DNA from: Bacteroidales bacterium
GTDB taxonomy: Bacteria > Bacteroidota > Bacteroidia > Bacteroidales > VadinHA17
Assembly: GCA_049512815.1 (NCBI GenBank)
Contig: JBEKWS010000008.1
Location: forward strand, 7,013-71,012
Reading direction: 5' to 3'
DNA length: 64,000 nt
Numbering within the stretch: position 1 is the first letter of the stretch; every line of letters starts with the position of its first letter. The notes under the pieces are model-generated. The model was not told the DNA's origin, did not search any database, and saw only the letters and a list, made by a program, of their open reading frames with translations. Below, one piece after another: positions 1,227-60,440 of this stretch. Both the position numbers and the translations under genes were made by a program.

Positions 1227-1325
1227 ATTATTATTCTGTTACATATTTAATCTAATAAGTCGGAAGTCCTATGACCGAAGTCCGTGTCGCACTTCTTCAG
1301 ACTTCTGGCTTCTGACTTCTCAACA

Positions 1326-2093
1326 TTAACCCCTTTCTGATATCTGAATAAGCTTTTCCCTGTCCAGTATTTTTATCTTTGACGAATCAGAATAAATAAC
1401 TCCTGAAACCTCAAGTTTCTTCAGTATTCTTACAACACATTCCTTGGCCATATTTGTCATCTCGCCAAGTTCTTGACGTGATAGGATCATTTCATATTCG
1501 TCTTTGTGGAACACCTGATCTGAAAAATACAATAATGCGTCTGCAAGTCTGCCGGACATTTTCTTTTGTGACAGGTTGACCATCCTGTTAAGTGACCCAA
1601 GCGATTTTGCACTGATATCTTCGAGGAGGCCCTCTGCAAATGGTCCGTTCACCCTTACCAGATGTTTGAAAATCTCAAAATTTATAAAACAGGCCTGAAC
1701 AGCAGTTATAGCAGCAACTGTATAGGTATGTCTGGAATTTACGTATGCACCGGGACCCATTATCAACCTTCCGGGTAAAGCAATACTCATTATAAAATTT
1801 TTCCCGTTTAATCCCTCAATATATGTTTTTGCCATTCCGGATGCCAGAAACAAAGCATTAGATGTGGGAGAGCCCTGTTTCATCATAATCTCACCAGGTT
1901 TAAATGTGGCTTCATACCTGTTGTCGTTTACCAGTCGAAGCTCCTCTTTTGTCAGATGCTGAAAGTTTTTCCATCGGCGGGTGCAGGTCTCACAACTACT
2001 TATTAAATTGACCACTGACATATTTCCGTTTTTAAAGGGGTTCAAAAATAGGTTATTAATAACATAAGAATCTACAAAACTAACAAATATCAC
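1326..2093 (-). CDS. Crp/Fnr family transcriptional regulator. The likely true start is M25 at 2021.
   Basis: A cNMP-binding-like beta-roll is followed by a C-terminal HTH (SRQELGEMTNMAKECVVRILKKLEVSGVI). An N-terminal CETC motif is present. Confidence 0.8.
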   Translation of the reverse strand: MIFVSFVDSYVINNLFLNPFKNGNMSVVNLISSCETCTRRWKNFQHLTKEELRLVNDNRYEATFKPGEIMMKQGSPTSNALFLASGMAKTYIEGLNGKNFIMSIALPGRLIMGPGAYVNSRHTYTVAAITAVQACFINFEIFKHLVRVNGPFAEGLLEDISAKSLGSLNRMVNLSQKKMSGRLADALLYFSDQVFHKDEYEMILSRQELGEMTNMAKECVVRILKKLEVSGVIYSDSSKIKILDREKLIQISERG

Positions 2094-2101
2094 CCTATTA
2101 G

Positions 2102-2115
2102 TTGATATATATCAC
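2102..2115. promoter_or_regulatory. FNR/CRP-like imperfect palindrome TTGAT-ATAT-ATCAC
   Basis: Read directly from the sequence. It lies in the divergent intergenic region between the Crp/Fnr gene and the multihaem lipoprotein gene. Confidence 0.35.
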
Positions 2116-2228
2116 TCAGAAACACTATATCTGTCAATTATATATATCGCAAATAGCATATTATCTGCTAATAAAATAACAGAGCTTTTTAGTACATTGC
2201 AAAACGAAATTTCATAAATAAACCATAC

Positions 2229-3536
2229 ATGAAAAACCTTTTCAGATTATTTTCATTTTTATTTTCGGCTGGATTTCTGCTCACAGCTTGTGAAGGTCCT
2301 ATGGGCCCTGCCGGGACTGCCGGAACAGATGGGAAAGATGCGAATGCGACCTGTACCCAATGTCATAATTCAACCGGTGTTGATTCGGTAAAAACCCAAT
2401 TTGCATATTCAAAACATTCCTATGGCGATGCAAATTTCGAGGAAGTCGGTAGTACAGGTTGTTCCCCTTGCCACGAATCAGAGGCCTTTAAATATGTAGT
2501 TGAAAACAATGTATCAACGGTCTTCTCAATTGTACCTCCTGCAACTACTTATTCCAATCCTTATGCTTCATCTCCTGATAAATCCTACGGCCCTATGCAG
2601 TGCAATATGTGCCATAGCAAATTACATACTACATATACCTTTGCTGATTTCATGCCTCTGACAACTACTGCAGCCGTGCCAATGACCTTTTTCGGTGGTG
2701 CAAAAACCATTGACCTTCCACAGGATGATAGCAAAAGCAATTTATGCGCTAAATGCCATCAACCTCGTCCTTTTACAAATTCAAACACAAATAAGAATGT
2801 ATTGAATTACGCCTTATTAGTAAGCAATCCGACTGCTGTATTCTACGATGCAGCTCAATCCAATAGTCTGAATGTTCTTAAACCCAGTTTCAGAACAAGT
2901 ACACATAATGGTACTACCGCAGCAATATTTGCCGGTATTGGTGGTGTGGAATTCGGAACAGGTTACACCAATTCACAGCATACAACTGTTGCATCATGCC
3001 AGGATTGCCATATGGCACCAATGACAGGAAAAGCCGGGGGACACACATTTTCTGCCCAGGGAAACTTTAACGGATGTAATGTTGCAGGTTGCCATTCGGC
3101 CAATCCTATATCTTCAGCAACTACATCAAAATACTGGAAACAGACCAGAGACGGGGTTAAAGCACAACTCGACCAGTTAGCAGCAAAATTACAGATCGGG
3201 GGCATTGATATTCTAAATAGAAATAGTGATGCGACTTCAAACCTATGGGCCGGACTCACAACAAATAACTATGACGGAAATCTGAATATATATGACCCTG
3301 TCAATAATCCTACCGGCATTGTCTATAATACAACTATGTTTCAGAATACAAGCACTACAGGCTTTACTGCTGAGCAGATCGCAGCTAATAATTTATTACC
3401 AAAAATTACCTTGACGAATGCACAAATGGGAGCTGTTATCAACTTCCAGTTATGCCTCAGAGATTTTAGTTTAGGTATTCATAATGCTGCATATACAACA
3501 ACTTTGTTAGCTAACTCAATAGCAGTACTTCCATAA
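2229..3536 (+). CDS. Multihaem c-type cytochrome lipoprotein with a short collagen-like GXY tract
   Basis: Signal peptide plus lipobox (LLTAC). Five CxxCH sites (CTQCH, CSPCH, CNMCH, CAKCH, CQDCH) plus one CX4CH (CNVAGCH). A GPMGPAGTAGTDGKD tract follows the lipid cysteine. Confidence 0.8.
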   Translation: MKNLFRLFSFLFSAGFLLTACEGPMGPAGTAGTDGKDANATCTQCHNSTGVDSVKTQFAYSKHSYGDANFEEVGSTGCSPCHESEAFKYVVENNVSTVFSIVPPATTYSNPYASSPDKSYGPMQCNMCHSKLHTTYTFADFMPLTTTAAVPMTFFGGAKTIDLPQDDSKSNLCAKCHQPRPFTNSNTNKNVLNYALLVSNPTAVFYDAAQSNSLNVLKPSFRTSTHNGTTAAIFAGIGGVEFGTGYTNSQHTTVASCQDCHMAPMTGKAGGHTFSAQGNFNGCNVAGCHSANPISSATTSKYWKQTRDGVKAQLDQLAAKLQIGGIDILNRNSDATSNLWAGLTTNNYDGNLNIYDPVNNPTGIVYNTTMFQNTSTTGFTAEQIAANNLLPKITLTNAQMGAVINFQLCLRDFSLGIHNAAYTTTLLANSIAVLP

Positions 3537-3615
3537 TCTATTTACATTAAATAAAGAATAATTTATTCAATCCTCAGAGTTATGCCTTTGGGGGTTGTTT
3601 TTTTGGAGCCGGCAT

Positions 3616-3642
3616 AAAAAAAGCTGAACAATTCAGTTCAGC
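3616..3642 (-). terminator. Intrinsic terminator for the 3672-4067 cytochrome c gene
   Basis: The minus strand reads gctgaac-tgaatt-gttcagc followed by ttttttt, 30 nt after the stop codon. Confidence 0.55.
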
Positions 3643-3671
3643 CTTTGATTTTGAAGAAATACTATCTTCCT

Positions 3672-4067
3672 TTACTTCTTCAATGTTCTCAAGTAGTTGA
3701 CAACATTCCAGATATCATTATCTGATAATTTGCCTTCATACTTTGGCATTTCGCTTCTTCCGGTTTTTGTTTTATAAAAAAGATCGCCATCAGCAAGATT
3801 CTGGAATTCAGCTTTAGAAAAATCACCCGGGAATGTTTTAAGAGCCCTGGCTTTTACGCCATCGCCAAGACCAGCTTTCCCATGGCAGGATGCGCAATTC
3901 TTTGTATAAAGATCCATCCCGGTTTTGGTACTTGCGGCACTCTGAGCAATAGGGTTCTTCATTGAACTGGAGTTAGCCGGTACAACCCATGGCTTAGGCT
4001 GTGCCATCAATGTTGCGCTTAACATCAAAACCGAAGCGCTGGCAAATAAAAGTTTCAAAGTTTTCAT
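3672..4067 (-). CDS. Monohaem class I cytochrome c, secreted (paralog A)
   Basis: Signal peptide, a single CASCH site and a distal MPKY methionine. About 71 percent identical to the 7411-7806 product by hand alignment. Confidence 0.85.
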   Translation of the reverse strand: MKTLKLLFASASVLMLSATLMAQPKPWVVPANSSSMKNPIAQSAASTKTGMDLYTKNCASCHGKAGLGDGVKARALKTFPGDFSKAEFQNLADGDLFYKTKTGRSEMPKYEGKLSDNDIWNVVNYLRTLKK

Positions 4068-5163: not shown

Positions 5164-5189
5164 CTAGAATTATTGAATATTCAGCAAAA

Positions 5190-6080: not shown

Positions 6081-6138
6081 ATAAAAGTTAATATTAAAGA
6101 AGCATTTAAAGTAGTTAAAAAAATAAATAGAATTTAAT

Positions 6139-7392: not shown

Positions 7393-7410
7393 GAAAAAAG
7401 ATTTTCTTCT

Positions 7411-7806
7411 TTACTTCTTCAAAGTTCTTACATAGTTAACAACATTCCAGATATCATCATCTGATAATTTTCCTTCATATTTTGGCATGTCACCTCTTCC
7501 TGTTTTGGTTTTGTAGAAATGTTCTCCATCTGTCTGATTCTGTGATTCTGCTTTTGAAAAGTTCGTTGGGACGGTTTTAAGTGATTTTGCTTTCGGTCCA
7601 TCACCAAGACCAGTTTTTCCATGACATGCAGCACAGGTTTTTGCATAGAGAGACTGTCCTGCTATCGTGCTGGCATCGCTCATGGCAATAGGATTCTTCA
7701 TTGTTTTGAAGTTAGCCGGTACAACCCATGGTTTTGGTTGTGCAACCAAAGAAATGCTCAGAAACATAACTGCTGAGCAGATAAAGATCAATTTAAGAGT
7801 TTTCAT
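7411..7806 (-). CDS. Monohaem class I cytochrome c, secreted (paralog B)
   Basis: Signal peptide and a CAACH site. Same length (131 aa) as the 3672-4067 product and collinear with it. Confidence 0.85.
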   Translation of the reverse strand: MKTLKLIFICSAVMFLSISLVAQPKPWVVPANFKTMKNPIAMSDASTIAGQSLYAKTCAACHGKTGLGDGPKAKSLKTVPTNFSKAESQNQTDGEHFYKTKTGRGDMPKYEGKLSDDDIWNVVNYVRTLKK

Positions 7807-8495: not shown

Positions 8496-8506
8496 CTTCG
8501 TTTCCT

Positions 8507-13644: not shown

Positions 13645-13712
13645 TTTTTATCTTTTCTTTAAACTTTTAATTACACAGAGAGCCACAGAAGGTTCACAGA
13701 GGTACACAGAGG

Positions 13713-16878: not shown

Positions 16879-17093
16879 ATAATTTATGCTTCACAATCAA
16901 ATCACATAAATATCATTTCTTATGTATATTCGAAATAAAACATATTCATAACTGCCTATATTACTTATTATTAGACTGCCCTTCTATCAACGAAATTAAT
17001 TACAGTCGAAAGCGATTTAACTAATAATCTGAAATCATATGACCGCTCCGGTTATTAATTTCTATTGCCAATATTTATTACCGATTTTCTTAA

Positions 17094-17257
17094 CCCTTCC
17101 CCGACCCTTCCCTGCAGGCAGGCTTCGCTAAAATTGCCTGCCAGGCAATTTTTTTAACACTAGGCCCTCTCAAACAATAAGGGAAGGGCGAACATACTAA
17201 TAAATAATTAGTTACTCACCTTCCCTTAGACTTAATGGAAGGGGTTGGGGGATGGGT
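17094..17257. repeat. GC-rich hairpin cluster, including a terminator-like hairpin with a T-run
   Basis: ggcaggc (17117-17123) pairs with gcctgcc (17136-17142), followed by caggcaa and ttttttt. cccttccc (17105-17112) is complementary to gggaaggg (17181-17188). ccttcc pairs with ggaagg at 17219-17242. Confidence 0.5.
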
Positions 17258-17451
17258 TCTTAATATGTAGGAAAGGGTCAGGAAAATGAGAATGGTTCAG
17301 TGTTTTAGTAAAATCAAAGGGGAGGCATATCAGGGAATAAGGCATTGGCTATAATTCTAACCCAAAAATTGTCGGATATATATCAAATTATACCATTTTT
17401 AAATATAAATTCGCAGCGCCGGAAAAACACGACTTCATAAAATTTTTCAAA

Positions 17452-19505: not shown

Positions 19506-19661
19506 ACATTTCTTGTTAAATAATGGTTTATTTATAACCTTTGTGACATCTTTGCACGGAGCGCAGAACACAGGGCACAGAGTAAAGAGCAAGGTGCATA
19601 GAGCACACCCTGAGCCCTGGGCAATGAAAATAGTAAGAAAAACAAGGGTAAGAAGACATGT

Positions 19662-23411: not shown

Positions 23412-23559
23412 TAATTAAGAAGTTAAACTAATTACCACTAAGACACAATGACTCCAAGGTACGTTAGAGCTTAGCTATAAATATTAATTCTTAGTGAAAC
23501 TTTGTGCCTTATTGCCTTGGTGGCAAAAAAAATACCACCGGAAATAACTTAAAGACTTC

Positions 23560-30574: not shown

Positions 30575-30774
30575 ACTTTGATGTATTAATTTGATGCAAT
30601 TTATACTGAAAACCGCTATAAAAGGAAAAGGTTACAGGGAATCGGTCAATTTTTAATAAAGATACTTTCTTAATGGCAACTCTGAGGAATCACGGAGGGT
30701 GTTGGAAAGTCGTTAAGTCTTGCTGTCTTGCTGTCTTATTTTCGTAGTGTTGATTTGCCTTTTATCTTTTACCT

Positions 30775-32695: not shown

Positions 32696-32925
32696 ATCTA
32701 AATCGCAAGATCAGGGATCTGCGGTACTGCGGTCTCGCAGTCTTGCGGTCGTTTTGACTTTTGTATTTTGACTTTTTTTACAACGGCGTTATATGGATTC
32801 AAATCTCCCCTTCCCCCATTCTCCTCTGCGCCCACTCTTCCTCTCAAGCTTTTGTGCCTTTGTACTATTACACCATTGCACCTATGTACCATTCTTCCTA
32901 TCTTTGTTTTCCTATTTCCCATGAT

Positions 32926-33348
32926 ATGTATCAGAAAGATTACATCCTCCGTATGATTGAGATGCTAGGTGACCTTATTGCCGGTATCCTGGGACTGATC
33001 AAAAAAGGTGAGTTTGAACATGCTGAAGAAAAACTTGAGAACCTCTATAACAAAATGCTTAAAGAGGATTCTGCCTTCTTCAGGGATATCCCTGAGAACG
33101 ACCTGACAGACAGGCTGCTTCATCAGCATAATTATACCAATGGCCATCTGGAGGTATTGGCAGAGCTCTTCAATGCTGAGGCTGAGCTGTGCCTGGCACA
33201 GGGTAATAAACCCGGAAGTCTTGAGTATTCACACAGGTCATTGAGGCTGTTTGAGTTTATCGATGCGGAATACAGGGTCTTCTCCCGGGAGCGTATTTAC
33301 AAGATGGAGGCAATACGGGAAAGAATAAGAACACTGGAAACCGTTTAG
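32926..33348 (+). CDS. Hypothetical protein (about 140 aa, helical)
   Basis: The track ORF 32761-33348 has an N-terminus that translates the repeat island. The first plausible start is the ATG at 32926 (MYQKDYILRM). Confidence 0.45.
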   Translation: MYQKDYILRMIEMLGDLIAGILGLIKKGEFEHAEEKLENLYNKMLKEDSAFFRDIPENDLTDRLLHQHNYTNGHLEVLAELFNAEAELCLAQGNKPGSLEYSHRSLRLFEFIDAEYRVFSRERIYKMEAIRERIRTLETV

Positions 33349-34908: not shown

Positions 34909-34953
34909 TTTATAATTTTTATTTTCTTTCGGAAGAATTTTTCAAACTTTTCC

Positions 34954-35607
34954 AGCTCCGGAGGAGCGGTACATTAATAGTAAATTTAGTTATAAAAATA
35001 CCGAGCTCCGAAGGAGCGGGAAATTAATAGAAGAATTAATCATATCAATGTTGAGCTCCGGAGGAGCGATATCTTTAAATATCATCAAACAGATATTCGG
35101 TTTTATAGACTATATTATTATAATTAAGCAAATTAACATATTCCTCCTTGAAACTCTTCATCTTATGATGTTCTTCCTGGTTTTTAATATAATTGATTAT
35201 TGTATCCAATTCGGCAGGATTACACGTGAAGGCTCCGAATCCATGTTGCCATTCAAAACGTCCTTGAACCCATCTCTGTTCGTTGATAAAACGGGATGAG
35301 TTGGCTTTTATATCTCTGATCAGATCAGATAAAGCTATAGCGGGTTTAATGCTCAACAGAAGGTGAATATGATCGGGCATGCCATTGATTATCATTAGTT
35401 TCTGATCATTATTAGTAACGATACCTGTTATATATCTGTATAGATCATCTTTCCATCGCAGGGAGATGATGTTTTCTCTGCCTCTGACGGCAAAGACTGT
35501 ATGAATGAATAATTTTGTATATGTATCGGCCATGAGGTGTCGCTCCTCCGGAGCTCATAATATTTTATATATCAATAGTTCTATTAATATTTCGCTCCTC
35601 CGGAGCT
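34954..35607 (-). mobile_element. REPtron: a RAYT transposase gene flanked by inverted REP hairpin units
   Basis: Three forward units, (g)agctccg(g/a)aggagcg, at 34954-34968, 35003-35018 and 35053-35068. Two inverted units, cgctcctccggagct, at 35541-35556 and 35593-35607. Three of the five units carry the attaatag tail. Confidence 0.7.
35075..35533 (-). CDS. REP-associated tyrosine transposase (IS200/IS605 Y1 family, RAYT)
   Basis: MADTYTKLFIHTVFAVRGRE ... HIHLLLS (HUH motif) ... a C-terminal Tyr region. 152 aa. Confidence 0.8.
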   Translation of the reverse strand: MADTYTKLFIHTVFAVRGRENIISLRWKDDLYRYITGIVTNNDQKLMIINGMPDHIHLLLSIKPAIALSDLIRDIKANSSRFINEQRWVQGRFEWQHGFGAFTCNPAELDTIINYIKNQEEHHKMKSFKEEYVNLLNYNNIVYKTEYLFDDI

Positions 35608-36955
35608 AATTATAGTTCTCATCCGGTTTAACTAGTTTCCCTTCAAACGCCTGTTTAAGAATCGATTGCCGTAGCGATTCGGATTGTTGCAGGCAGTTTT
35701 CAATTGTCTCCTCCATCTTATCGCAGACTGAAAAACGGGTTTCGATCTCAGAAATAATATGTTGTTGTTCTTCAATTGAAGGAATCAACATTTCAATTTC
35801 CTTGAAATCTTTGATCCCGACTAAATTTGGCATTGCAGTTCCTTGTGATTGATCAAAGATTTTCTTTTGAAAAAAAGCTGTCCTAAAGTGCTGGATAAAG
35901 TATTTGTTTAGGATAATATTATTTCTTAGGCGAATTCTTAGCAACGCCTGATTAATAATGCCTGCTTTCGCATCTTTTGGGATTTCACATATTCTCCCCA
36001 GGGTTACTCCAGAGCAACTTATAATTAAATCATTAGGAATTACTTTGAAATTTTTTAATTCATTGTATTTATCCTCATTAATAAAATACTTTCCTCTGTA
36101 AGGATCATTATTTATTGCATTTCCCTGTTCATAAACCTTATAACCAACCGGTACAAAAAAATCTTTCTTGATAGCGCTCCCAAAGGGTCCTCGTCTTAAT
36201 CCCTCTTTATCGAGTGTGATGTCTTTCAATTTATAAGATTTCCATCCTACTGGCAATTCTTTTCCAGACAGGTCGTGGCCTTTCGTTAAAGTGAATCTAC
36301 CCTCAAAAGCCCACTTTAAAACTGACTGTCGATAGGTTTTCAATTGCAGCTTTACCATTCCGAGTTGCTGTTTACCTTTACCCAACTCGCTGAATAACTC
36401 TTCGATCTTGGATACTATTTGTTGTTGCTCCAAGAGAGGGGGAAGTGGAACATTTATCTTTATGTAGTCAGGGAATTTGAGATTTCTAAGATTATTACTT
36501 CCTCCCTGGTATTTAATTATTTCTCCTGTAGAGTAGAAAAATCGTAAATAATAGTTTAAAAACTTTGAATCATTTTCTTTTAAAGGTCTAATAACTCGTA
36601 AAAAATTGGTGCAAATCTTGGGTATATCTTTCTCAAAACTCAAAGTTGCTTTATCAATTAAGACAGTTCTACCAACAGGCTGCTCTGGACCGCCTCCAGA
36701 AATCTCAACAAGAATATCTCCAACTTCGAGTTGTCTGGTAATGATTGATGATTTTTTAATTTTCCGAAGAGAAGCTGTCATACCTTTTGATATTTCCCAG
36801 TTCCGTATTTCGGAACCTCTTATGCAATAAGCCAATTCATATCCAGGGTCAGAGTAAGTTATTTCTTTTCCCCAATCACCACCAATAGCTAGTTGAATCA
36901 ACTCCCTAAGACTTTTTATTTCCCAATGCTTTGGAATTGTATCTTTATCAATCAT
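35606..36955 (-). CDS. hsdS: Type I R-M specificity subunit. Start taken at the ATG at 36955, 4 nt after the upstream stop.
   Basis: Two target-recognition domains separated by conserved helices (LPPLLEQQQIVSKIEELF and IPSIEEQQHIISEIETRF; ...LKWAFEGRF and ...LKQAFEGKL). Confidence 0.85.
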   Translation of the reverse strand: MIDKDTIPKHWEIKSLRELIQLAIGGDWGKEITYSDPGYELAYCIRGSEIRNWEISKGMTASLRKIKKSSIITRQLEVGDILVEISGGGPEQPVGRTVLIDKATLSFEKDIPKICTNFLRVIRPLKENDSKFLNYYLRFFYSTGEIIKYQGGSNNLRNLKFPDYIKINVPLPPLLEQQQIVSKIEELFSELGKGKQQLGMVKLQLKTYRQSVLKWAFEGRFTLTKGHDLSGKELPVGWKSYKLKDITLDKEGLRRGPFGSAIKKDFFVPVGYKVYEQGNAINNDPYRGKYFINEDKYNELKNFKVIPNDLIISCSGVTLGRICEIPKDAKAGIINQALLRIRLRNNIILNKYFIQHFRTAFFQKKIFDQSQGTAMPNLVGIKDFKEIEMLIPSIEEQQHIISEIETRFSVCDKMEETIENCLQQSESLRQSILKQAFEGKLVKPDENYN

Positions 36956-40085: not shown

Positions 40086-42863
40086 TTATGCAGCTAGCAC
40101 CTCATTAAGTTCGGCTATGATTAATTCACAATCTTCTCCAAACAACTGCCACATCTTACCTTTTCCCCCGAATGCATTGAAAGGAGTATAATCGAGATCA
40201 TCATACTCAATATGAATGCTTGTGGCAATATGATCTTTTATCATTCTCAGCCAACTCATTTGTGATTCACTGAATTTAAGTGTCCCGGCTTGTTTTTTAA
40301 ATACCCACTCCCGGAAATTTTTATCAACTGTTTTGTCATAACTGGTAAGATCCTTGTCAATACCTGTTATTTTCCTGAGTAACGAGATAAGTGCGATCAT
40401 TTCATTTTTTGGTGATCCTGTTACTTTTTCAATCTGGCTGTATGCCTGCCAGATATTCATAGGAGCCAGAAGAGGTTTATCTGAAATCAGATGATCAACA
40501 AGTTCCTTCATCATTTTGAAAGTAATCTCACGTCTTCTGAGCGGTTGATTATAAAATATCTGCAACGCAACAATTTCATTCTTATGAGTTTCGATCCAGC
40601 TTTTGAAACTTTCTACCAGCTCCGCAGCATTTGATTTATTGTCCTTATCCCATCCTGCAAAAATGATCTTGTCGCGGTTAATGTCATCGATTACCTGTTC
40701 ATGTGCTTTTCTGACATTTTCAATGTAAGTATTGAGTTCACCAGTAAAGATCGAAGCGGCAGTTTCAATTAATTCATTATGTCTGCGGGTTAATTCATTC
40801 TCTTTATCAACTGGAGGAGAGGTGGCAAATTCCGATTCAACTTTTAACCTTACCCCTTCAATAATATCAGGATCATAAGCATTCAGAAGTTCTTTTATAG
40901 TCTGATTTATGGTTTTACCTTTGGCTTTCTCTGCAAAAAGATTTTTTTCTTTTTCTGTAATTTGTTTTTCAAGTCTTATTAGTCTGTTAGCAATCGATGA
41001 AAAAAGATCATCATCACGCACCCCCACTGCAATTGCGCCCAGCAAATCCTTCAGCGGAATTCCTGGTTTCTTTTCAAGAGGACGACTGTCGGTCTTCAGG
41101 CTTTTGGTAACACCAACAGAATCAACAATTACAAAATGGTCTTTCGTATATTTAGCTGAAGGGCTGACTTTCCTCAGATCATCTAGCGAGATTGTCCGGG
41201 TTCCCCGACCTTTCATCTGTTCAAAATAATTCCGGCTTTTCACATCTCGCATAAACAGAAGACATTCGAGAGGTTTCACATCGGTACCGGTAGCAATCAT
41301 ATCTACTGTAACTGCTATCCTCGGATGATAGGCGTTTCGAAATTGTGCAAGAACAGATTTGGTATCTTCTTCAGATTTATAAGTCAGCTTTTTACAAAAC
41401 CTGTTCTCTTCGGCAAACTCCTCCCTGACTATTTGAATAATGTCATCCGCGTGTGAATCAGTCTTTGCAAAAATCAGAGTTTTAGGCACTTCAAATTCGC
41501 CATTTTCTGAGAATCTCTCAGGAAACATGTCGGGAAGATGATCTTTAAAGTTTTTGATAATTGTTCTGATCTGATTAGGATTAACAACTTCATCGTCAAG
41601 TTTCTTATTTGAATAGACCAGATCCTCATCCAGCTGATCCCAACGCTTTTTTCGGGTCAGTTTTTCACGATGGTCAACAAATTCTCCTTTCCAGATTTTT
41701 GAGCCCTTCTTAGTAATATCAGTTTCAATGAGGAAAATATTATAGCCGACATTAACCCCATCGACAACAGCCTGCTGGTGAGTGTATTCACTTACAATAT
41801 TTTGTCTGAAATATCCGAATGTCCTGTTATCGGGTGTTGCAGTCAGTCCGACCTGGAAAGAATCGAAATATTCGAGAACCTGTTTCCAGAGGTTATAAAT
41901 ACTTCGGTGGCATTCATCAATAACCACAAAATCAAAAAACTCTACCGGCAGTTTTGCATTATAGACAACAGGAACCGGTTCGCGTTTTTGCCAACTAATT
42001 TCTCCCGGATTTGTTTCTTCAGCTTCTTCAGGAAGTTCCTCTCCTTTTAATATAGAGTATAATCGTTGTATAGTACTGATACAAACCTGGCTGTCAGAAG
42101 CTACGTAACTGCTTCTTAACCTCTGTACATTATAGAGTTCCGTGAACTTACGGTTGTCGTCTGTTGGCGTATAAGCCATAAATTCCTGTTCTGCCTGTTC
42201 ACCCAGGTTACGTGTGTCGACAAGGAACAGTATCCGCCTGGCGCCACTGAATTTAAGTAGCCTGTAAATTGAGGTTATGGCTGTATATGTCTTGCCTGAT
42301 CCGGTAGCCATCTGGATCAGAGCGCGAGGTCTGCTCTCTTTAAAAGATTTTTCCAGATTCCGGATCGCAACAATCTGGCAGTCTCTTAATCCTGTTGTTG
42401 TTAGTAACGGTAAGTCCAATAATCTTTTTCTGAGAGTCTTCTCTTTTTTATTCCACTCACGGAATGTTTCCGGTTTGTGAAAAGTAAAGGTTGGTCTCGA
42501 TCGCGGTTTTGGATCGCGGTAATCTGTAAAACGAGTTAGTTCACCTGTACTTTCATATACAAAAGGTAGAGGATCATTATTCAGATATTTGAGTTTGCTT
42601 TCCGCGTAATCCCTGGATTGTTCTTCATAATCTGTAAGACGGAAACCTTCCTCTACTTTTTTTGCTTCAATTATTCCTACAGGTTGTTTATCGACGAAAA
42701 GTAAATAGTCAGCAGGTCCGGTATCCGTTTGGTATTCCCTTATAGCTATACCGATCCCGGCATTCAGATTAATCTCTTTCTTATTCTGAATTGTCCAACC
42801 ACAGGCAATCAATTGCTTGTCAATATTATCACGAGCTATTTGTTCGGGGTTTTGGTTGGGCAT
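40086..42863 (-). CDS. hsdR: Type I restriction endonuclease subunit R (EcoEI-like, 925 aa)
   Basis: N-terminal nuclease domain, helicase motif I MATGSGKT, motif II DECHR, and a long C-terminal helical domain. Confidence 0.9.
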   Translation of the reverse strand: MPNQNPEQIARDNIDKQLIACGWTIQNKKEINLNAGIGIAIREYQTDTGPADYLLFVDKQPVGIIEAKKVEEGFRLTDYEEQSRDYAESKLKYLNNDPLPFVYESTGELTRFTDYRDPKPRSRPTFTFHKPETFREWNKKEKTLRKRLLDLPLLTTTGLRDCQIVAIRNLEKSFKESRPRALIQMATGSGKTYTAITSIYRLLKFSGARRILFLVDTRNLGEQAEQEFMAYTPTDDNRKFTELYNVQRLRSSYVASDSQVCISTIQRLYSILKGEELPEEAEETNPGEISWQKREPVPVVYNAKLPVEFFDFVVIDECHRSIYNLWKQVLEYFDSFQVGLTATPDNRTFGYFRQNIVSEYTHQQAVVDGVNVGYNIFLIETDITKKGSKIWKGEFVDHREKLTRKKRWDQLDEDLVYSNKKLDDEVVNPNQIRTIIKNFKDHLPDMFPERFSENGEFEVPKTLIFAKTDSHADDIIQIVREEFAEENRFCKKLTYKSEEDTKSVLAQFRNAYHPRIAVTVDMIATGTDVKPLECLLFMRDVKSRNYFEQMKGRGTRTISLDDLRKVSPSAKYTKDHFVIVDSVGVTKSLKTDSRPLEKKPGIPLKDLLGAIAVGVRDDDLFSSIANRLIRLEKQITEKEKNLFAEKAKGKTINQTIKELLNAYDPDIIEGVRLKVESEFATSPPVDKENELTRRHNELIETAASIFTGELNTYIENVRKAHEQVIDDINRDKIIFAGWDKDNKSNAAELVESFKSWIETHKNEIVALQIFYNQPLRRREITFKMMKELVDHLISDKPLLAPMNIWQAYSQIEKVTGSPKNEMIALISLLRKITGIDKDLTSYDKTVDKNFREWVFKKQAGTLKFSESQMSWLRMIKDHIATSIHIEYDDLDYTPFNAFGGKGKMWQLFGEDCELIIAELNEVLAA

Positions 42864-43014: not shown

Positions 43015-43235
43015 GGTTTACAGTTTGCGGTAGGCGTCTCACGACACACGACGCACGATGCAGGGTCTTGCGCTGCGTGCTGTCCTGCTCTCTTCTGTCG
43101 CTTGTCTTGAAGTCTTGGAGTCGTACAGTCTTATGATTATTTTGACTTTTGTATTTTGCATTTTATTACCCCGGAGTTAACTGAGCATCATGGAGTCAGA
43201 TCACCTCTTCTCCTAATTTCCTCTTCGTCCTCGAA
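43015..43235. repeat. GC-rich degenerate tandem-motif island (gtcttg / acgac motifs)
   Basis: It shares a 19-mer with 32752-32770 and a 17-mer with 59163-59179. Confidence 0.7.
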
Positions 43236-45585: not shown

Positions 45586-45736
45586 AATCGCTAATTAATT
45601 TGATATTATTCACAATAATTGTGTTGCTTGGTGCTTATTGTTTGTTGCTTTATTAAAGATAAGAAAACAATTAAAATTCCACTAAATAAACCAGATCTCC
45701 CCTCAAACAAAAAACCGGACAAAGCCGGTTCTTTCT

Positions 45737-46036
45737 CTAAGCCTGCTCAGGAGTTGCTATCTTTTCATCCTCACTGCAGGAATGTCTGTATTTATTATTA
45801 AATTTTCTTTTCCAACCTCTCCTGCCACGGTCATGTGAACCCGGGGCTACCCCGGTAAGAAGAATTTTCGAAAGAAGAAACAGCCCTGCTGTCTGCCAGA
45901 AGGTGAGTACCGGTCCGTGGAACAATAAGGGAATAAGCGAGTTCCATAGACACATTACGATATAAATTGTCAGGGTGATGAAACCTAATCCGAGTATACC
46001 AAATCCTACATACTTTAAAATTCTTAATGTTTTCAT
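45737..46036 (-). CDS. Small two-TM membrane protein with a basic tail (possible partner of the ECF sigma)
   Basis: Its start is 1 nt after the sigma gene stop. Two hydrophobic helices. Confidence 0.45.
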   Translation of the reverse strand: MKTLRILKYVGFGILGLGFITLTIYIVMCLWNSLIPLLFHGPVLTFWQTAGLFLLSKILLTGVAPGSHDRGRRGWKRKFNNKYRHSCSEDEKIATPEQA

Positions 46037-49452: not shown

Positions 49453-49569
49453 AGGGTGTCTCAAAAGGGCACCCTCCTAAACGCTCGGCCCTCCTAAAGG
49501 GCTCTGTTTTGGGACCAGAGCCCCTCTGTCATCCGCCAAATGGCGGATGACATCTCCCCTAAAGGGGAG
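49453..49569. other. Five consecutive GC-rich hairpins between convergent genes
   Basis: Stems: agggtg / caccct (49453-49475), gccct / agggc (49488-49502), gggctctg / cagagccc (49499-49523), gtcatccgcc / ggcggatgac (49528-49551), ctcccc / ggggag (49554-49569). Confidence 0.7.
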
Positions 49570-49613
49570 CTAATTCTGTGGTATTTAGGTAAATTGCTCT
49601 TGGGTGTAGAGTA

Positions 49614-50538: not shown

Positions 50539-50755
50539 TGAATTTTCTATTTTGAGTTTAACATTTTATGAGAAATAAAGTTCATCTAAAAAAATATTAA
50601 ACCCAGAGAGATTCGCGTAAATCTGCGTGATCTCCGGGAATAGGATTTCACCATGCACCTTGCAACCAGCAACCTGCAACCAGCACCAAAGAATACCGTA
50701 AACATTCGTATCTTTCTCTCGTATTTTAAAAATAACCCAAGCGGAACAGATTATT

Positions 50756-51499
50756 ATGAGTACTGCTTATTTCCGGTTTTATGAGGAGCTGAATGATTTC
50801 CTGCCTCAGGAGAAGAGAAAAAAACTGTTTCCCTATGAATTCAACGGCACTCCTTCAATTAAAGATGCTGTTGAAGCGATTGGGGTACCGCATGTTGAAG
50901 TTGACCTGATCCTGGTGAACAGTCTGTCGGTCGACTTTTCTTACAAACTAAAGAATGCAGATTCCGTATCCGTTTATCCTGTTTTTGAAAGCTTTGACAT
51001 TGCTCCCGTAACGCATTTAAGGAAAAAACCTTTAAGGGATTTGAAGTTTGTCGCTGATGTACACCTGGGAAAGCTCACAAAATACCTTCGATTATGCGGC
51101 TTTGATACATATTACCGTACTGATCTTAACGATGAGGAAATAATTGATCTCTCACTATCGGATAAAAGAGTTATCCTGACAAGGGACAAAGGATTGCTTA
51201 AGAATAAAAAAGTGACACATGGTTACTATATAAGATCGCGGTACCCCCGTTATCAATTAAAAGAAGTTTTCCTCCGTTTTGATTTAAAGAACCTGATCGC
51301 TTCATTCACACGTTGTATGGAATGCAACGGGCTGCTGAGGAATGTAACAAAAAAGGAAATTCTGGACCGTTTATTACCCAAAACCCGGCAATACTACCGG
51401 AAATTTAAAATGTGTAATGATTGTAACCGTATCTACTGGAATGGCTCGCATTGGCAGAATATGAAAAGAGATATTAAAACATTAATGCTGGCAACCTAA
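50756..51499 (+). CDS. Mut7-C RNase domain protein (ubiquitin-like N-domain + PIN-like domain + Zn ribbon)
   Basis: FVADVHLGKLTKYLRLCGFDT, then CMECNG...CNDCNRIYW cysteine pairs. Confidence 0.75.
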   Translation: MSTAYFRFYEELNDFLPQEKRKKLFPYEFNGTPSIKDAVEAIGVPHVEVDLILVNSLSVDFSYKLKNADSVSVYPVFESFDIAPVTHLRKKPLRDLKFVADVHLGKLTKYLRLCGFDTYYRTDLNDEEIIDLSLSDKRVILTRDKGLLKNKKVTHGYYIRSRYPRYQLKEVFLRFDLKNLIASFTRCMECNGLLRNVTKKEILDRLLPKTRQYYRKFKMCNDCNRIYWNGSHWQNMKRDIKTLMLAT

Positions 51500-51500
51500 C

Positions 51501-51623
51501 GGCGCAATGGCTCAATGGCGCAATGGCGGCTTGAGGTTGAGGTTGAGGTACAGGTTGAGGTTGAGGAGTGATAAACGAAAAACGCGAAACGATTAATCCT
51601 GCACCATGCACCCTGCAACTTGA
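51501..51623. repeat. Composite GC-rich repeat: c(g/t)caatgg x3, then ggcggc, then a gaggtt-type hexamer run, then caccatgcaccctgcaac
   Basis: Read directly. Its junction is a 23/24 nt match to 59573-59596. Confidence 0.8.
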
Positions 51624-55718: not shown

Positions 55719-55807
55719 TTGAAACCTAATGGAAATTGTTTATAATTATCTATATTTCAATGCACTGCTTCCAAACCGTCAGGCCTGTTGCTAATTTGAA
55801 CTAATTT

Positions 55808-56764: not shown

Positions 56765-56886
56765 GTTTTTATCTCCTTAAAATGGCTACGTTTATGTCAC
56801 TCATTACAAAACTTACTTGCATTAGCTTCCAAGCGAATACTTCTAAAACCTGCATGGTATGAGCCATTGTTGGGCATTCATACATT

Positions 56887-57711: not shown

Positions 57712-57811
57712 ATTTAGTCATTATAAAATGATACTTTACATTTCAACTATTGCGCCAGGTTTCGTTTAATTGAGTCTGAGACGAAATCAATGTAAGATGT
57801 AAGACCCAATT

Positions 57812-58441
57812 TCATTTCTGTCCGATGTGGACTTTTTGGCTGATTCTGATTATTTTGCGACCTTCATAATTTAAACCTGAATCAACTATTAATTCTTTAA
57901 ACTCTTTTGTACTATACATCTTCACATGTCCATTTTCAAAAAAATGGATTAGTTTATGAATAATTTTAATAGCCCAAATATCAGCAGTCGGGTCGAGTAT
58001 ATAGACTTTCCCTCCTGTTTTGATCAGTCGATACATTTCTTTCAATGCTTTATCAGGATGTAAATAATGATGAAAAGAATTAGTACAAATGATGGCATCA
58101 AATAAATTGTCATCGAGAGGGATTGATTCTGCATTTGACTTTATAAAATGAAAATTCTCTTTTGCTTTAAAATTCTCTTTCGCTCTTTCAATCATTTTTG
58201 CGGATAAATCAACACCGTAAAAAGAACCTTTGTTGTCAATTAATCTTGCAGTTTGTCCTAATGCCCAGCCTGTCCCGCATCCAATGTCAAGAATGCTCAT
58301 GTTTTCTTTGAGTTGCAATAAAGAAATTACATCACTTTGTCCACGTCTTAAGTAATAGTTCCTCCAATTATTATTATCCAGTGAATTTGCCCATTTATCC
58401 CATTTTGCTTCATTTAGTTCAATGTGTTTTGATTCATTCAT
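57812..58441 (-). CDS. Class I SAM-dependent methyltransferase
   Basis: Motif I ILDIGCGTG and a post-I acidic residue (GVDLS). Confidence 0.8.
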   Translation of the reverse strand: MNESKHIELNEAKWDKWANSLDNNNWRNYYLRRGQSDVISLLQLKENMSILDIGCGTGWALGQTARLIDNKGSFYGVDLSAKMIERAKENFKAKENFHFIKSNAESIPLDDNLFDAIICTNSFHHYLHPDKALKEMYRLIKTGGKVYILDPTADIWAIKIIHKLIHFFENGHVKMYSTKEFKELIVDSGLNYEGRKIIRISQKVHIGQK

Positions 58442-59039
58442 GATTAGTTTCTTTATTTAATAAAACTTACAGAAAATGATTACGTTAGACAGTATTATAA
58501 AATATAAAGTGAATTACTACAAGTCAAAACTAATTTGCTTTTGGTCTTTCTTTGGGTGATTCTAAAAACTTAAAATTACGAAAAAGGCGTTACAATGTAA
58601 TTCGCTGCATATCTTATTCTTTTATATGAACGGAGTAAAACAAGTTACTTTAAAGTGGATCCAACAGATTAAATAAAAAGTAAATTGGTATTGGATAATA
58701 AGTAACATATAAAATTTTACCTGCCAAAGAGGATAAAAAGAAGAAAACCATTCATTTAGAAGAAAAAATGCTCAATACTTCGATGTAATTATATAGGCAA
58801 TTTGCACAATGTAATTAAATATGCAGGTAAATGGAAAAGCTTACATCTGTGATAGATCAATAATGAATTTAGTTCAAATAGCACTCGAACTCAATATTCT
58901 AAGATGCATATTTACAATATTATACGAAGTGATAAAAAACCCAGGGTGACGAATCTGCTGATATTTCCAATTTCTAATCCCAAAAAAAGCCTTACATACG
59001 TCTTGGCGAGAAGATTGTTCGTCATGTTGGCGCATGACT

Positions 59040-59180
59040 CCAACCTCCGCTAAAGCTACGGTTGGCAAAGTACAACGTAGGGTCTTGCTCGCGACGCTCG
59101 ATGTCTTGTCGGCTGTGGCCTCCTTTTTTAGCTCTTCGCGCCAGTCTGGTTCGCTTCGCTCCCTTGTCTTGAAGTCTTGA
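59040..59180. repeat. GC-rich degenerate island related to 43015-43235
   Basis: Shares agggtcttgc and the 17-mer cttgtcttgaagtcttg (59163-59179 versus 43101-43117). Confidence 0.7.
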
Positions 59181-59541
59181 AATCTTTTATATTAAAAAAT
59201 ACAGAACATACCAACGCTGCAATGAAAGCATACAGTGTCACATTATCAACAAGAGAAGCATTAAGGTCCAGCCCTGAAAGTCTATCTACGAGATATTTGA
59301 TATATGAGTTAGGCAAATCTGTTTTCCCAAGTTTTTCAAGAATGCTGAAATGCCAGTCTGTCAGCGGACAATAACCTAATGTTCCGACTATCAGTCCAAG
59401 GAATAACCACGATGCGCCTGTTATTATCAGGGTAAACAGGTTGAGGATCCTTGTTCTTTTCCATATCCAGCCGAAAAGATTAAAGAATATCAGGAAGGTG
59501 TGGAACACTACAAAAAATATGTCGAGGAGGCGCCAGATCAT
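59128..59541 (-). CDS. DUF2784-like membrane protein. Start at MIWRLLDIFF.
   Basis: GYCPLTDWHFSILEKLG motif. The track's longer N-terminus (LTSTSTLTSTS...) is a translation of the hexamer array. Confidence 0.6.
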   Translation of the reverse strand: MIWRLLDIFFVVFHTFLIFFNLFGWIWKRTRILNLFTLIITGASWLFLGLIVGTLGYCPLTDWHFSILEKLGKTDLPNSYIKYLVDRLSGLDLNASLVDNVTLYAFIAALVCSVFFNIKDFKTSRQGSEANQTGAKS

Positions 59542-59572
59542 TTTCGAGAGTGTTTTTGTAAAGATCGGAAAA

Positions 59573-59700
59573 ATGGCGCAAAGGCGGCTTGAGGTTAAGG
59601 TTAAGGTTGAGGTTGAGGTTAAGGTTGAGGTTGAGGTTAAGGTTGAGGTTGAGGTATGAGGGAAAGACAAAAGACAAAAGGAAAAAGACAAAAGGCAGAA
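59573..59700. repeat. Composite repeat: atggcgcaaaggcggc, then 11 x (g/a)aggtt hexamers (59591-59656), then agacaaaag repeats
   Basis: Read directly. Confidence 0.85.
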
Positions 59701-59785
59701 ATGTATTATAGGCGATGGGTGTAAGGGCTCAACAGCACAACGACTCAAGGGTGTAATAGTTTGAACGGTTCATTTCAAACCACTG

Positions 59786-60013
59786 CTATAGGAATATCTT
59801 TCTGATAATGTATATCAGTAATGAGAGCAAAAGGCTCAGCAGGATCATAGTAGTTACAGGGAAATAAAACCTTAAATTAGCTCTCTTTATCCGTATATCT
59901 CCGGGTAGATGACCTATCCAGTGCAGCTTATCATGAAAAAAGTAGACTACAATACCGATAACGACAATACAAATTCCGATAAGAATTATCCATTTCCCAG
60001 TGTCACTGTTCAT
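59786..60013 (-). CDS. DUF2905 family small membrane protein
   Basis: GHLPGDIRIKRANLRFYFPVTTMILLSLLLSLL is the family signature. Confidence 0.7.
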   Translation of the reverse strand: MNSDTGKWIILIGICIVVIGIVVYFFHDKLHWIGHLPGDIRIKRANLRFYFPVTTMILLSLLLSLLIYIIRKIFL

Positions 60014-60440
60014 AGGGCAAAAATACTATATAAAATGATATTTGATACAGGCAAAGGTGCGAGGCGTGAGGCGTGAGGTGTACGGTTGTGCGGTTTATTA
60101 AATTCTTCCATGTATTAGAGCCTGAAAAAAATCGATATGATACCACATCTTTGCATAGAAATAGGAAAGAACCAGCAGTGCTGCCAGGAATGTAAATAAT
60201 AATCCAAAGTATTTGCCGGCGACAGACTTTCCCGATTTGATTGCTTAAAATTATCCTTTTATACGGGAATAGCAACTTCCATCGAATGATCACAGGTAAT
60301 GAGAAGAATACGTATATCCTTTAGGTTGCCATTTGATATGAAAACCAAGTCCAATTTAAAAGTGGATCTGAAGTATATTATCTGAATGATGACCTGATAA
60401 GAATCTTATCAAGGTAAATCAGAGGTATTTGGAATATCAT

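Follow-up and report, generated by a model that had tools for sequence, protein, structure and literature searches.

The stretch of DNA analysed here, which we call the window, comprises 64,000 nucleotides (nt) of the genome of a Bacteroidales bacterium (GenBank assembly GCA_049512815.1, contig JBEKWS010000008.1, positions 7,013 to 71,012 of the forward strand), and many of its gene boundaries carry islands of short, degenerate tandem repeats. Both arms of one such island match the ends of a small cassette, found in relatives and in metagenomes, whose single gene encodes a protein of the GxxExxY family. At least three islands in the window are modules, each composed of a T-rich leader followed by three or four cores (CACNAAG or CACAGAG) at a spacing of 7-10 nt. 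We lean, with modest confidence, towards the view that the islands are gene-less derivatives of very small cassettes with short-tandem-repeat ends. The observations that bear on this view are the modular architecture of the islands, the identity of one island with cassette ends, a decay series at a single gene junction, unit polymorphism between strains, the co-variation of repeat unit with protein subfamily, and the multiple genomic contexts in which the cassette occurs.

The window is identical to a part of a 217.5-kb metagenome contig (ENA ERZ27250059 k141_519343). It was compared with 34 loci from metagenome-assembled genomes (MAGs) of uncultured Bacteroidales from fens, permafrost and peat soils. 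These loci were gathered by a scan with the IspH protein, and their IspH is 65-91% identical in amino-acid sequence to that of the window. In two of them (L025 and L042), a pair of inverted modules with cores spaced 8-8 brackets a gene of ~130 amino acids (aa) between the genes for ETF-alpha and Fer4, and the product of this gene scores 3.6e-23 against TIGR04256 (GxxExxY) and 1.1e-38 against PF13366 (PDDEXK_3). A scan of metagenomes with this protein returned 520 relatives, of which we examined the 80 best loci, at 65-92% identity. One or more modules of at least three cores lie within 130 nt of the GxxExxY gene in 69 of the 80, and a significant inverted repeat (z≥4) relates the upstream to the downstream flank in 49 of 76. 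Spacing at the cassette ends is 8-8 in 64 modules and 8-8-10 in 35, and the inner core mostly lies 2-9 nt before the ATG or 1-2 nt past the stop codon. The consensus of the cassette end is AATTTTTTGCCACAAAGACACAAAGACACAAAG, with an outer boundary that reads T-Y-W-G-C|CAC. Among module pairs whose leaders point outward, the gap between modules peaks at 0-60 nt (31 pairs) and again at 350-450 nt (42 pairs, with the gene inside); pairs in the opposite orientation have no peak at 350-450 nt.

The cassette is found in many places. The 80 loci present at least 54 distinct flanking contexts, and in each of six pairs of proteins at ≥90% identity the context differs on both sides. Contigs that carry GxxExxY genes are mostly shorter than 2.5 kb, as they should be if assemblies break at a repeat present in many copies.

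In order to relate the islands to these cassettes we built a profile of the terminal inverted repeats (TIRs), of length 36, solely from the 114 cassette-end modules of the 69 metagenomic loci, and searched the window with it using nhmmer. Two matches are significant: 23498-23531 on the minus strand (E=7.5e-8, profile positions 2-35 of 36) and 23429-23460 on the plus strand (E=1.5e-4, profile positions 4-35 of 36). Both matches lie in a single island, 23431-23530, and correspond to its two arms, full length and with their leaders pointing outward. When matches are admitted up to E≤100, 7 of 21 fall within islands, which make up 2% of the window (binomial 1e-7). The non-significant matches alone include 5 of 19 in islands (at 43104, 30719, 51505, 59573 and 32851; binomial 3e-5), with spans such as 30719-30738, 43104-43122 and 51505-51523. 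This excess of islands among the weak matches is only suggestive, because the profile and the islands are both periodic and low-complexity bias may inflate it.

The modules recognised in the window are as follows.

13674-13711, plus strand: solo module of four cores, CACAGAG agc CACAGAA ggtt CACAGAG gta CACAGAG, with spacing 10-11-10.
19551-19626, plus strand: segmented hairpin, with a left arm of (GCACAGA)-type heptamers and a right arm of (YCTGAGC)-type heptamers.
23429-23460, plus strand: left module TTAC CACTAAG a CACAATG a CTCCAAG, with spacing 8-8.
23498-23531, minus strand: right module TTTTTTGC CACCAAG g CAATAAG g CACAAAG ttt CACTAAG, with spacing 8-8-10.

The solo module at 13674-13711, whose cores are preceded by an A/T-rich leader, is intercistronic in the operon of the ETF, Fer4 and CCG genes, where 1 nt separates it from the stop of Fer4 and 29 nt from the start of CCG, and it folds no better than shuffled sequence. 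The hairpin at 19551-19626 has left-arm cores at 19555-19582 spaced 7-7-7, which make up a module paired with a partner arm; a conserved promoter-like block (~19515-19545) precedes the hairpin and the start of cmk (19662) follows it, and its fold z-scores are -1.5 and -2.8 on the two strands. The two modules of 23429-23531 stand tail to tail with leaders outward, like a cassette minus its gene, 19 nt past the stop of a DUF362 gene and 29 nt before the next start. The pair at 23431-23530 folds as a hairpin, with z of -2.5 on the plus strand and -1.5 on the other.

Modules of this kind were sought by chaining the core C-R-C-N-R-A-G over the window plus the relatives' loci, 686 kb in total. The search found 38 modules, 23 with exactly four cores and 14 with three. 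Information content is 0.9-1.85 bits per position in the cores and 0.1-0.3 bits between them, and a leader, TTAAC/TTTAC or TTTGC, stands ahead of the first core. Spacing falls into three classes, 10-(11..13)-10, 8-8 and 7-7-7, and a module may stand alone or be paired with another, head to head or tail to tail. All three classes are represented in the window, by the solo 10-11-10 module at 13674-13711, the 7-7-7 module at 19555-19582 and the 8-8 / 8-8-10 pair at 23436-23522.

Comparison of orthologous junctions shows the cassette in several states of preservation. At the junction between ETF-alpha and Fer4, which in the window is empty (a 10-nt gap), a full cassette is present in L025, L042 and L046-L049. 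Locus L017 has an inverted repeat, 18 codons, a C-terminal stub and a second inverted repeat, 179 nt in all; L026 has a gene-less pair of 4+4 cores; L031 and L030 have a solo module; and L010, L019 and L038 have degenerate remnants. Across species these states form a decay series from cassette to solo module, and the internally deleted cassette of L017 is direct proof that cassettes can give rise to gene-less pairs. At the CCG|Fer4 junction, relatives carry a solo module, half of a hairpin, a full 4+4 hairpin or a hairpin element of an unrelated kind; solo four-core modules are found in L024 and L018, and hairpins of the form (CTTTGTG)4-loop-(CACAAAG)4 in L020, L022, L026 and L028.

At the cmk junction the element is preceded by a strongly conserved block, ccttgtcttataNNggtttatttatcacctttgtg, which by its likeness to the TAnnTTTG -7 motif may be a Bacteroidetes promoter. 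In at least ten species or strains, (GCACAGA)n comes next, then a loop and (YCTGAGC)n, the number of units being variable; other species have a different hairpin family or no spacer. These heptamer hairpins contain one mismatch per heptamer and fold equally on both strands. Close strains differ by whole units: L008 (98.5% identical) has a 14-nt (2x7) insertion at 19606, and L131 (99.75% identical) is without exactly one 8-nt unit at 30730-30737.

A separate GC-rich hairpin family (TACCCCC...GGGGGTA, CCCCTAAAGGGG, CCCTTCCC/GGGAAGGG) is also present in the window, at 49455-49575 and 17085-17275, with fold z-scores of -6.0 and -3.6. In relatives L010-L042 this family replaces the tandem-repeat modules at the cmk, CCG|Fer4 and ETF-alpha|Fer4 junctions.

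The association between gene and repeat extends beyond the best-sampled subfamily. Divergent GxxExxY genes, both beside the primary ones and on viral contigs, are flanked by other units: CACTTAG, TTTAACCACTGAG (13-nt period), CACAGAT (period 10), CGCWGAT and GGTTCATCC. A scan of viral contigs yielded five divergent GxxExxY loci, three of them with tandem-repeat flanks. The repeat unit co-varies with the protein subfamily. In the CACAGAT class, of which one identical protein is found on 23 contigs, the start codon lies inside the unit (ATGAACACAGAT encodes MNTD), so that gene and repeat are physically fused.

In L084 (2781-3385), a 41-nt module with spacing 8-8-12-13 is repeated in tandem about five times beside a GxxExxY gene; arrays of modules therefore exist, besides arrays of units. 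L150, a contig of the Planktothrix sp. UBA8402 MAG (DMPJ01000252.1), and L151, a Bacteroidales-type ETF locus, share an identical GxxExxY protein and an identical downstream flank of >110 nt; the outer edge of the 5' repeat is the exact point at which the two sequences part. The copy annotated in the Planktothrix MAG is a 76%-identical one. The break between L150 and L151 is either a chimera of assembly or binning at the repeat, or a recombination breakpoint at the end of the element.

The GxxExxY protein is predicted to be a minimal nuclease of the PD-(D/E)XK fold. Residues D73, E83 and K85 (D...ExK), together with the GxxExxY motif itself, are invariant in 20 sequences down to 29% identity. 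An AlphaFold model has a pLDDT of 92 and a pTM of 0.85, and its best neighbours in the PDB are Cas4 SSO0001 and lambda-type exonucleases, at a weak level of similarity (E 7e-3, TM 0.49); a sequence search found no solved structure for the protein. The literature gives the function of GxxExxY as 'unknown' and notes 'multiple transfers' (PMC3424549), and our searches of the literature on GxxExxY, PDDEXK_3 and TIGR04256 found no functional study.

An intact cassette, as seen in relatives and metagenomes and not in the window, is ~0.5 kb long and carries one GxxExxY gene of ~130 aa. Inverted repeats bracket the gene within a few nt of its start and stop, each consisting of a T-rich leader that ends in GC, followed by three or four degenerate 7-nt cores at fixed spacing. 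The unit is CACNAAG at 8-8-10 in the best-sampled subfamily, and other units belong to other protein subfamilies. Cassettes occupy intergenic spacers, often within operons, where ~25-40 nt separate them from the start codon of the gene downstream. Under the origin that we propose, loss of the gene by internal deletion would leave two tail-to-tail modules that fold as a segmented hairpin, and further loss would leave solo modules and degenerate remnants, while replication slippage would add or remove whole units and could expand one unit into a long array. The island at 23429-23531 is such a gene-less pair; 13674-13711 and 19551-19626 have cores of the same kind at other spacings; and the remaining islands, including those with units other than CACNAAG, would derive from these or from sister subfamilies through further decay or expansion. 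The cassettes themselves would be selfish elements, and the encoded nuclease, acting on the repeats, or a partner would recognise their ends one core at a time. Effects on the host, such as stem-loops in 5' untranslated regions (UTRs) and between cistrons, polymorphism in unit number and false open reading frames (ORFs), are probably by-products.

A number of results weigh against this origin. A significant E-value links just one island, 23431-23530, to cassette ends; the best window match of a CACAGAT-type TIR profile is the island at 13674, at only E=0.066; and the three four-core modules found in the window with a loose core exceed the shuffles only modestly (0.36 expected, with three reached in 7 of 300 shuffles). 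Nine islands (TTGAGG, GTCTTGA, TGCAACC, GACTTCT, GCGTGAG and others) resemble cassette ends weakly or by eye. No GxxExxY gene was found in the window by tblastn, the family hidden Markov model (HMM) or NCBIfam, and the HMM finds it in only two of the 34 relatives' loci (L025 and L042), being absent from the other 32. Nor did a search for inverted pairs 150-1200 nt apart yield any gene-bearing pair of 10-12-10/TTAAC or 7-7-7 modules: wherever such a pair encloses a recognisable gene, it is always GxxExxY between modules of the 8-8 type. Modules of the 10-12-10 class mostly have their leaders inward, opposite to the cassette, and they are rare near GxxExxY genes (4 in 394 kb). No direct repeat that would mark a target-site duplication was found outside the leaders of 25 well-bounded cassettes, where A/T-rich flanks would hide one of 1-2 nt, and we infer the mobility of the cassette, be it transposition or homing, from its distribution. 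Finally, since a whole hairpin stands on either side of some cassettes, the modules could be pre-existing arrays that the gene prefers as targets, as opposed to parts of the element.

The window has a GC content of 37% and contains 10.9 kb of non-coding DNA in total. Its islands are 35-222 nt long and consist of degenerate arrays outside ORFs, whose copy number differs between strains. Phase-variation (contingency) repeats, by comparison, are near-perfect and are located within an ORF or a promoter spacer, where a change in copy number switches expression. A first-pass annotation had listed 13 islands, and each was recovered at its coordinates with its motif; likewise, they do lie after stop codons, before start codons and between convergent genes, as that annotation had it. 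Its description of them as GC-rich holds for the pool (0.48, versus 0.37 for the window and ~0.25-0.35 for most intergenic spacers), with the exception of 23431-23530 (0.35) and 45616-45650 (0.34). Using Tandem Repeats Finder (period 5-12, GC≥0.35, score≥30) and a null of 100 block-wise dinucleotide shuffles, we find eight arrays in the non-coding DNA of the window versus 0.42 ± 0.64 in the shuffles (maximum 3), an enrichment of ~19-fold, and six in coding DNA versus 3.05 expected. With the relatives' loci included there are 86 non-coding arrays, with periods of 7, 8 and 10, and 64 coding arrays, with periods of 9 and 12. The window contains no Rfam family at gathering score and no tRNA or tmRNA gene.

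The islands also corrupt ORF calling, as had been claimed: public gene calls place the DUF2784 gene at 59129-59542, not 59128-59748, and the gene past the island 32699-32920 at 32926-33348, not 32761-33348. Spurious ORFs of 74 and 53 aa are annotated in public calls within islands. The same happens at cassettes, where some public protein calls run into the repeat and begin LPRRRKDAKK, the translation of TTGCCACGAAGGCGCAAAGACGCTAAG.

The remaining islands are listed below.

1261-1323, no strand: hairpin with arms (GAAGTC)x2 ... (GACTTCT)x4.
30676-30742: degenerate module-like stretch GCAA CTCTGAG gaat CACGGAG, followed by (GTCTTGCT)x2.6, which reads (AGCAAGAC)n on the minus strand.
32699-32920, plus strand: composite of (CTGCGGT/GTCTTGCG) units, a (TTTTGAC)n array, a unique block and polypyrimidine repeats.
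43015-43235, plus strand: composite of (CACGACA)x3, a GC-rich spacer, (GTCTTGAA)x4, (TTTTGAC)n, a unique block and a polypyrimidine tail.
45616-45650: short degenerate array, which on the minus strand reads CAATAAG c ACCAAG c AACACAA.
50649-50690, plus strand: (TGCAACC)-type heptamer array upstream of a Mut7-C gene, with no fold.
51501-51623, plus strand: composite of TAAC + (GGCGCAAT)x3.5 (period 8), (TTGAGG)x6, a spacer and CACCATGCACCCTGCAAC.
59040-59186: composite of a small hairpin CCAACCTCCGCTAAAGCTACGGTTGG, a GC-rich stretch with GTCTTG units, and (GTCTTGAA)x2.6.
59573-59700, plus strand: composite of ATGGCGCAAAGGCGGC, (TTGAGG/TTAAGG)x12 and (AAAGACA)x4.6.
60056-60093, plus strand: (GCGTGAG)-type heptamer array, 41 nt upstream of the start of a DUF2905 gene on the minus strand.

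The first of these is flanked by two minus-strand genes, a Crp-like one whose stop is at 1326 and the next one, which starts at 1226, and it folds with z of -3.0 (plus) and -3.2 (minus) relative to dinucleotide shuffles; its unit family and that of 60056-60093 may also stem from cassettes. The island at 30676-30742, between the stop of a nitroreductase gene and the start of an ECF sigma-factor gene, has no stable fold. The one at 32699-32920 fills a divergent intergenic region (fold z=-0.8, not significant) and is spanned by the spurious 74-aa ORF. Directly 3' of the stop of an MFS gene, the island 43015-43235 contains a local stem between its CACGAC and GTCTTG arrays (overall z +1.1), and its units drift along the array, from GTCTTGAA to TTTTGAC, at 43104-43164. 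The array at 45616-45650, which lies 30 nt upstream of a methyltransferase start and has no fold, looks by eye like the CACNAAG cores.

Arrays similar to that of 50649-50690, of the type GGTTGCA/CAGCAAC, are carried by relatives L036, L037 and L038. Its sequence CACCATGCACCTTGCAAC is repeated at 51602-51619, downstream of the Mut7-C gene, and CACCATGCACC(T/C)TGCAAC is present at both 50649 and 51602. The Mut7-C/Ub-Mut7C gene (50756-51499), together with the arrays that follow it, is thus bracketed by a direct repeat identical at 17 of 18 positions (50649-50666 and 51602-51619), which could mark an insertion into a TGCAACC array. The island 51501-51623 stands between convergent genes and has no fold. 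That at 59040-59186 overlaps the last ~19 codons of the DUF2784 ORF, and its overall fold is not significant. Its small hairpin CCAACCTCCGCTAAAGCTACGGTTGG (59042-59067) recurs in L038 (8053-8078) as CCAGCCTTCGCTAAAGCTACGGCTGG, with a compensatory change of A-T to G-C, and there it is embedded between GGTTGCA heptamer arrays. The island 59573-59700, 30 nt upstream of the DUF2784 start (minus strand), has an 18-nt super-period at 97% identity in its TTGAGG/TTAAGG array, and its minus-strand RNA is nearly free of structure (-2 kcal/mol over 136 nt). As regards unit sequence, the 8-nt units NNNAAGAC and GGCGCAAT resemble the cassette units ACTCCAAG and CGCAAAG by eye, with no significance for any one of them, and TTGAGG/TTAAGG could, speculatively, come from a CTAAGG half-core that expanded by runaway 6-nt slippage.

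For seven islands the distance to the downstream start codon is 29-41 nt; the island edge and the start codon are, respectively:

1261 and 1226
13674 and 13644
19626 and 19662
23530 and 23560
45616 and 45585
59573 and 59542
60056 and 60014

The 3' repeat of the GxxExxY cassette likewise lies 25-40 nt ahead of the ATG of the next gene, and the gap at the empty site of the window is 10 nt. The element may carry its own A-rich spacer ahead of the start.

Several islands share long junctions with one another. The segments 51514-51566 and 59572-59624 are 89% identical over 53 nt, and the junction GGCGGCTTGAGGTT of 51501-51623 is shared with 59583; 32738-32791 and 43126-43179 are 80% identical over 54 nt, 19 of them exact, with homology extending beyond; and 43082-43122 is 78% identical to 59144-59184, with CTTGTCTTGAAGTCTTG exact. 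The long junctions reported by the first-pass annotation are thus real, at 78-89% identity. From them it had concluded that the islands form a dispersed family, as opposed to random slippage. This is borne out insofar as several islands belong to module families dispersed across loci and species; a single family it is not, as only 13674, 19551 and 23431 satisfy a strict definition of the module and the rest are heterogeneous and weakly similar. Nor are slippage and element origin exclusive, for the unit-length indels between strains indicate that slippage acts on top of element origin. Among the roles that the annotation had listed, the one with direct evidence is that of relics of a non-autonomous element; it fits 23431-23530, both of whose arms match the cassette-end profile, and the decay series at one junction, and it finds no significant match in the other islands. 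The statement that the islands are not dominated by hairpins applies to most of those in the window, which fold no better than shuffles, apart from 1261, 19551 and 23431, which fold, and 43015-43235, which has a local stem. It does not apply to the phenomenon overall: among the arrays of the window and relatives, a significant inverted partner array lies within 150 nt of 31 of the 86 non-coding arrays versus 2 of the 64 coding ones.

The strongest competing explanation is that repeats of the short tandemly repeated repetitive (STRR) or LSSR type arise from slippage and template switching alone, and that GxxExxY genes favour such arrays as landing sites. Within AT-rich spacers, short seeds rich in GC would duplicate, diverge and sometimes become quasi-palindromes. 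Exact unit-length indels between strains speak for such a process, as do the 18-nt super-period at 97% identity in the 12-copy TTGAGG array, the many unit sequences and periods within one window, and the drift of units from GTCTTGAA to TTTTGAC; the cassettes that sit between complete hairpins, and the failure to find a target-site duplication in the 25 cassettes, also speak for it. Against it stand the preferred number of cores (four) at fixed, non-uniform spacing (10-12-10, 8-8-10) and the recurrence of the same composite junctions at different loci; conserved cores with free spacers are not predicted by the neutral decay of a slipped array. The covariation of unit with protein subfamily, the class whose start codon is inside the unit, and the internally deleted cassette of L017, which shows a route from cassette to gene-less pair, also weigh against it. 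We therefore regard slippage alone as unlikely, though it is the rival that we take most seriously.

It is slightly less probable again that the islands are regulatory elements selected by the host, either stem-loops for mRNA stability or partial termination, a role also put forward for REPs, or arrays of sites for a DNA- or RNA-binding protein. The cmk hairpin is kept in place in the 5' UTR after the promoter-like block in at least ten species, nearly all relatives have a structured element of some kind in the CCG|Fer4 spacer, the ends of seven islands lie 29-41 nt upstream of start codons, and cores are conserved where spacers vary; moreover, STRR hairpins, such as that between hupS and hupL, have been suggested to stabilise transcripts (PMC2670836). 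Yet the class of element at a given junction switches between species, and distant relatives are without the spacer. A strand test on 14 orthologous or paralogous heptamer hairpins found that one strand folds about as well as the other, that G-U pairs are not biased towards the transcribed strand, and that there is no signal of selection on that strand. Most islands in the window fold no better than shuffles, none has the GC stem and U-tract of the canonical terminator at 45706-45736, and the association with GxxExxY is left unexplained. A regulatory role would be compatible with secondary co-option of element remnants.

As for intrinsic terminators specifically, the hairpin islands at 1261, 19551 and 23431 have no T-run following them on the sense strand, according to a direct reading and not a systematic terminator scan. 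The canonical intrinsic terminator just mentioned, AACCGGCTTTGTCCGGTT followed by a T-run (45706-45736, minus strand), stands directly past the stop of the gene at 45737-46036; ordinary terminators in this genome are thus unlike the islands.

An origin as repetitive extragenic palindromic (REP) or REPIN-like sequences, dispersed by the Y1 transposase of the IS200/IS605 family in the window (35075-35533; NF033573 3e-20), which resembles a REP-associated tyrosine transposase (RAYT; model score 1e-7, below cutoff) and is flanked, RAYT-like, by inverted copies of a short palindromic repeat, can be dismissed as most improbable: that transposase has its own private repeat, AGCTCCGGAGGAGCG, present at its flanks only (five copies, none elsewhere in the 64 kb) and unrelated to any island motif, and the islands are tandem arrays without a GTAG/CGTC-type head, not palindromes of 20-40 nt. 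The transposase gene itself is on the minus strand, in a region (34937-35622) where inverted copies of AGCTCCGGAGGAGCG flank it (3+2), and its insertion separates hsdM from hsdS in a type I restriction-modification operon (hsdR 40086-42863). Elsewhere in the window, two paralogous genes for a 131-aa c-type cytochrome (3670-3969 and 7409-7708) lie 3.7 kb apart at 74% nucleotide identity.

Among known systems, the islands are closest in appearance to the STRRs of cyanobacteria and the TAACTGA repeats of Beggiatoaceae, cyanobacteria and some Bacteroidetes, which are intergenic arrays of 2-12 degenerate units of 6-10 nt, mostly 7 nt. As in those systems, several unit families occur per genome, sites are found upstream of starts, past stops and between cistrons, and an array and its complement can form a hairpin (in the STRR case, between hupS and hupL). 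Studies of STRRs and of short heptamer repeats are said to include those of Mazel in 1990 and Mrazek in 2007. The classic STRR units of heterocystous cyanobacteria are CCCCAGT, TTGGTCA and CAACAGT. The window has the excess of intergenic arrays of ~7 nt and the variation in unit number that characterise STRRs; it differs in its taxon, Bacteroidales and not cyanobacteria, and in its unit sequences, none of them the classic ones. Unlike STRRs, moreover, the islands include modules with a leader, a preferred number of four cores and fixed spacing, and one class of island is identical to the inverted repeats of a protein-coding cassette, a link not reported for STRRs. The function and origin of STRR and TAACTGA repeats are given as unknown, and for their spread 'no mechanism is evident' (PMC2670836; PMC4679880).

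The islands also resemble miniature inverted-repeat transposable elements (MITEs), which are small non-coding elements, dispersed between genes, that have the same inverted repeats as a gene-bearing partner and derive from it by internal deletion (here L017 and L026). Small non-coding size (35-222 nt) and deletion intermediates (L017, L026) are both found; ends that match a gene-bearing partner are found for 23429-23531 only, with 13674 borderline (E=0.066). A gene between inverted modules, the mark of the GxxExxY cassette, is absent from the window, which holds gene-less derivatives only. BrickBuilt, a MITE of Porphyromonas gingivalis (PMC4596501), likewise combines inverted with tandem repeats in a Bacteroidetes genome, but its repeats are internal bricks of 22-23 bp and not terminal heptamers. 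In contrast to MITEs, the inverted repeats of the islands are themselves tandem arrays of 7-nt cores, and the partner gene encodes a PD-(D/E)XK protein of 130 aa and not a recognised transposase; no target-site duplication was found around the 25 cassettes, whose A/T-rich flanks would hide one of 1-2 nt.

In the REPIN-RAYT system (PMC3116915; PMC3733652), as here, a small gene is flanked by an inverted repeat that is also scattered singly and as hairpin pairs, with hairpins in transcribed spacers. The two differ in the fold of the protein (PD-(D/E)XK as opposed to an HUH/Y1 transposase), in the form of the repeat (modules of tandem cores as opposed to palindromes of 20-40 nt with a GTAG or CGTC head), and in copy number, since RAYTs are typically single-copy and the GxxExxY gene is multi-copy and found in many contexts. 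Arrays of short repeats are bound cooperatively in several systems: the heptads of omega and ParG, the 8-bp boxes of MetJ, and the ends of Tn7 and Mu with their subterminal transposase sites. These arrays, too, comprise 3-10 contiguous units of 7-10 bp, direct and inverted, with conserved cores; by analogy, the cores could plausibly be read by the GxxExxY protein or a partner.

Catalogues of short tandemly repeated intergenic sequences reportedly go back to 1990 for cyanobacteria, with Beggiatoaceae and some Bacteroidetes added later. We found no published description of an association between repeat islands and a GxxExxY cassette; the link is apparently undescribed, and it suggests an origin for this class of bacterial short tandem repeats. 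A broader version of the proposal, which we put forward tentatively and with less confidence than the origin of the islands themselves, is that GxxExxY genes are the protein part of a very large and undescribed class of mobile or selfish cassettes of ~0.5 kb, whose terminal inverted repeats are arrays of 3-4 short tandem repeats particular to each protein subfamily, and whose gene-less footprints, reshaped by slippage, are the STRR-like heptamer and octamer islands of Bacteroidota, and perhaps likewise the STRR and TAACTGA repeats of cyanobacteria and Beggiatoaceae. GxxExxY genes also abound in both of these groups.

The islands matter in practice, as they break assemblies and create false N-terminal extensions (LPRRRKDAKK, MNTD) and spurious small ORFs. 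They place variable stem-loops in 5' UTRs and operons, and they vary by whole units between near-identical strains. If the proposed origin is true, the origin of STRR-type arrays would become a testable question, namely whether they are the ends and remains of nuclease mini-cassettes, and the orphan GxxExxY family, with >8000 scored relatives per search and no functional literature, would acquire a role.

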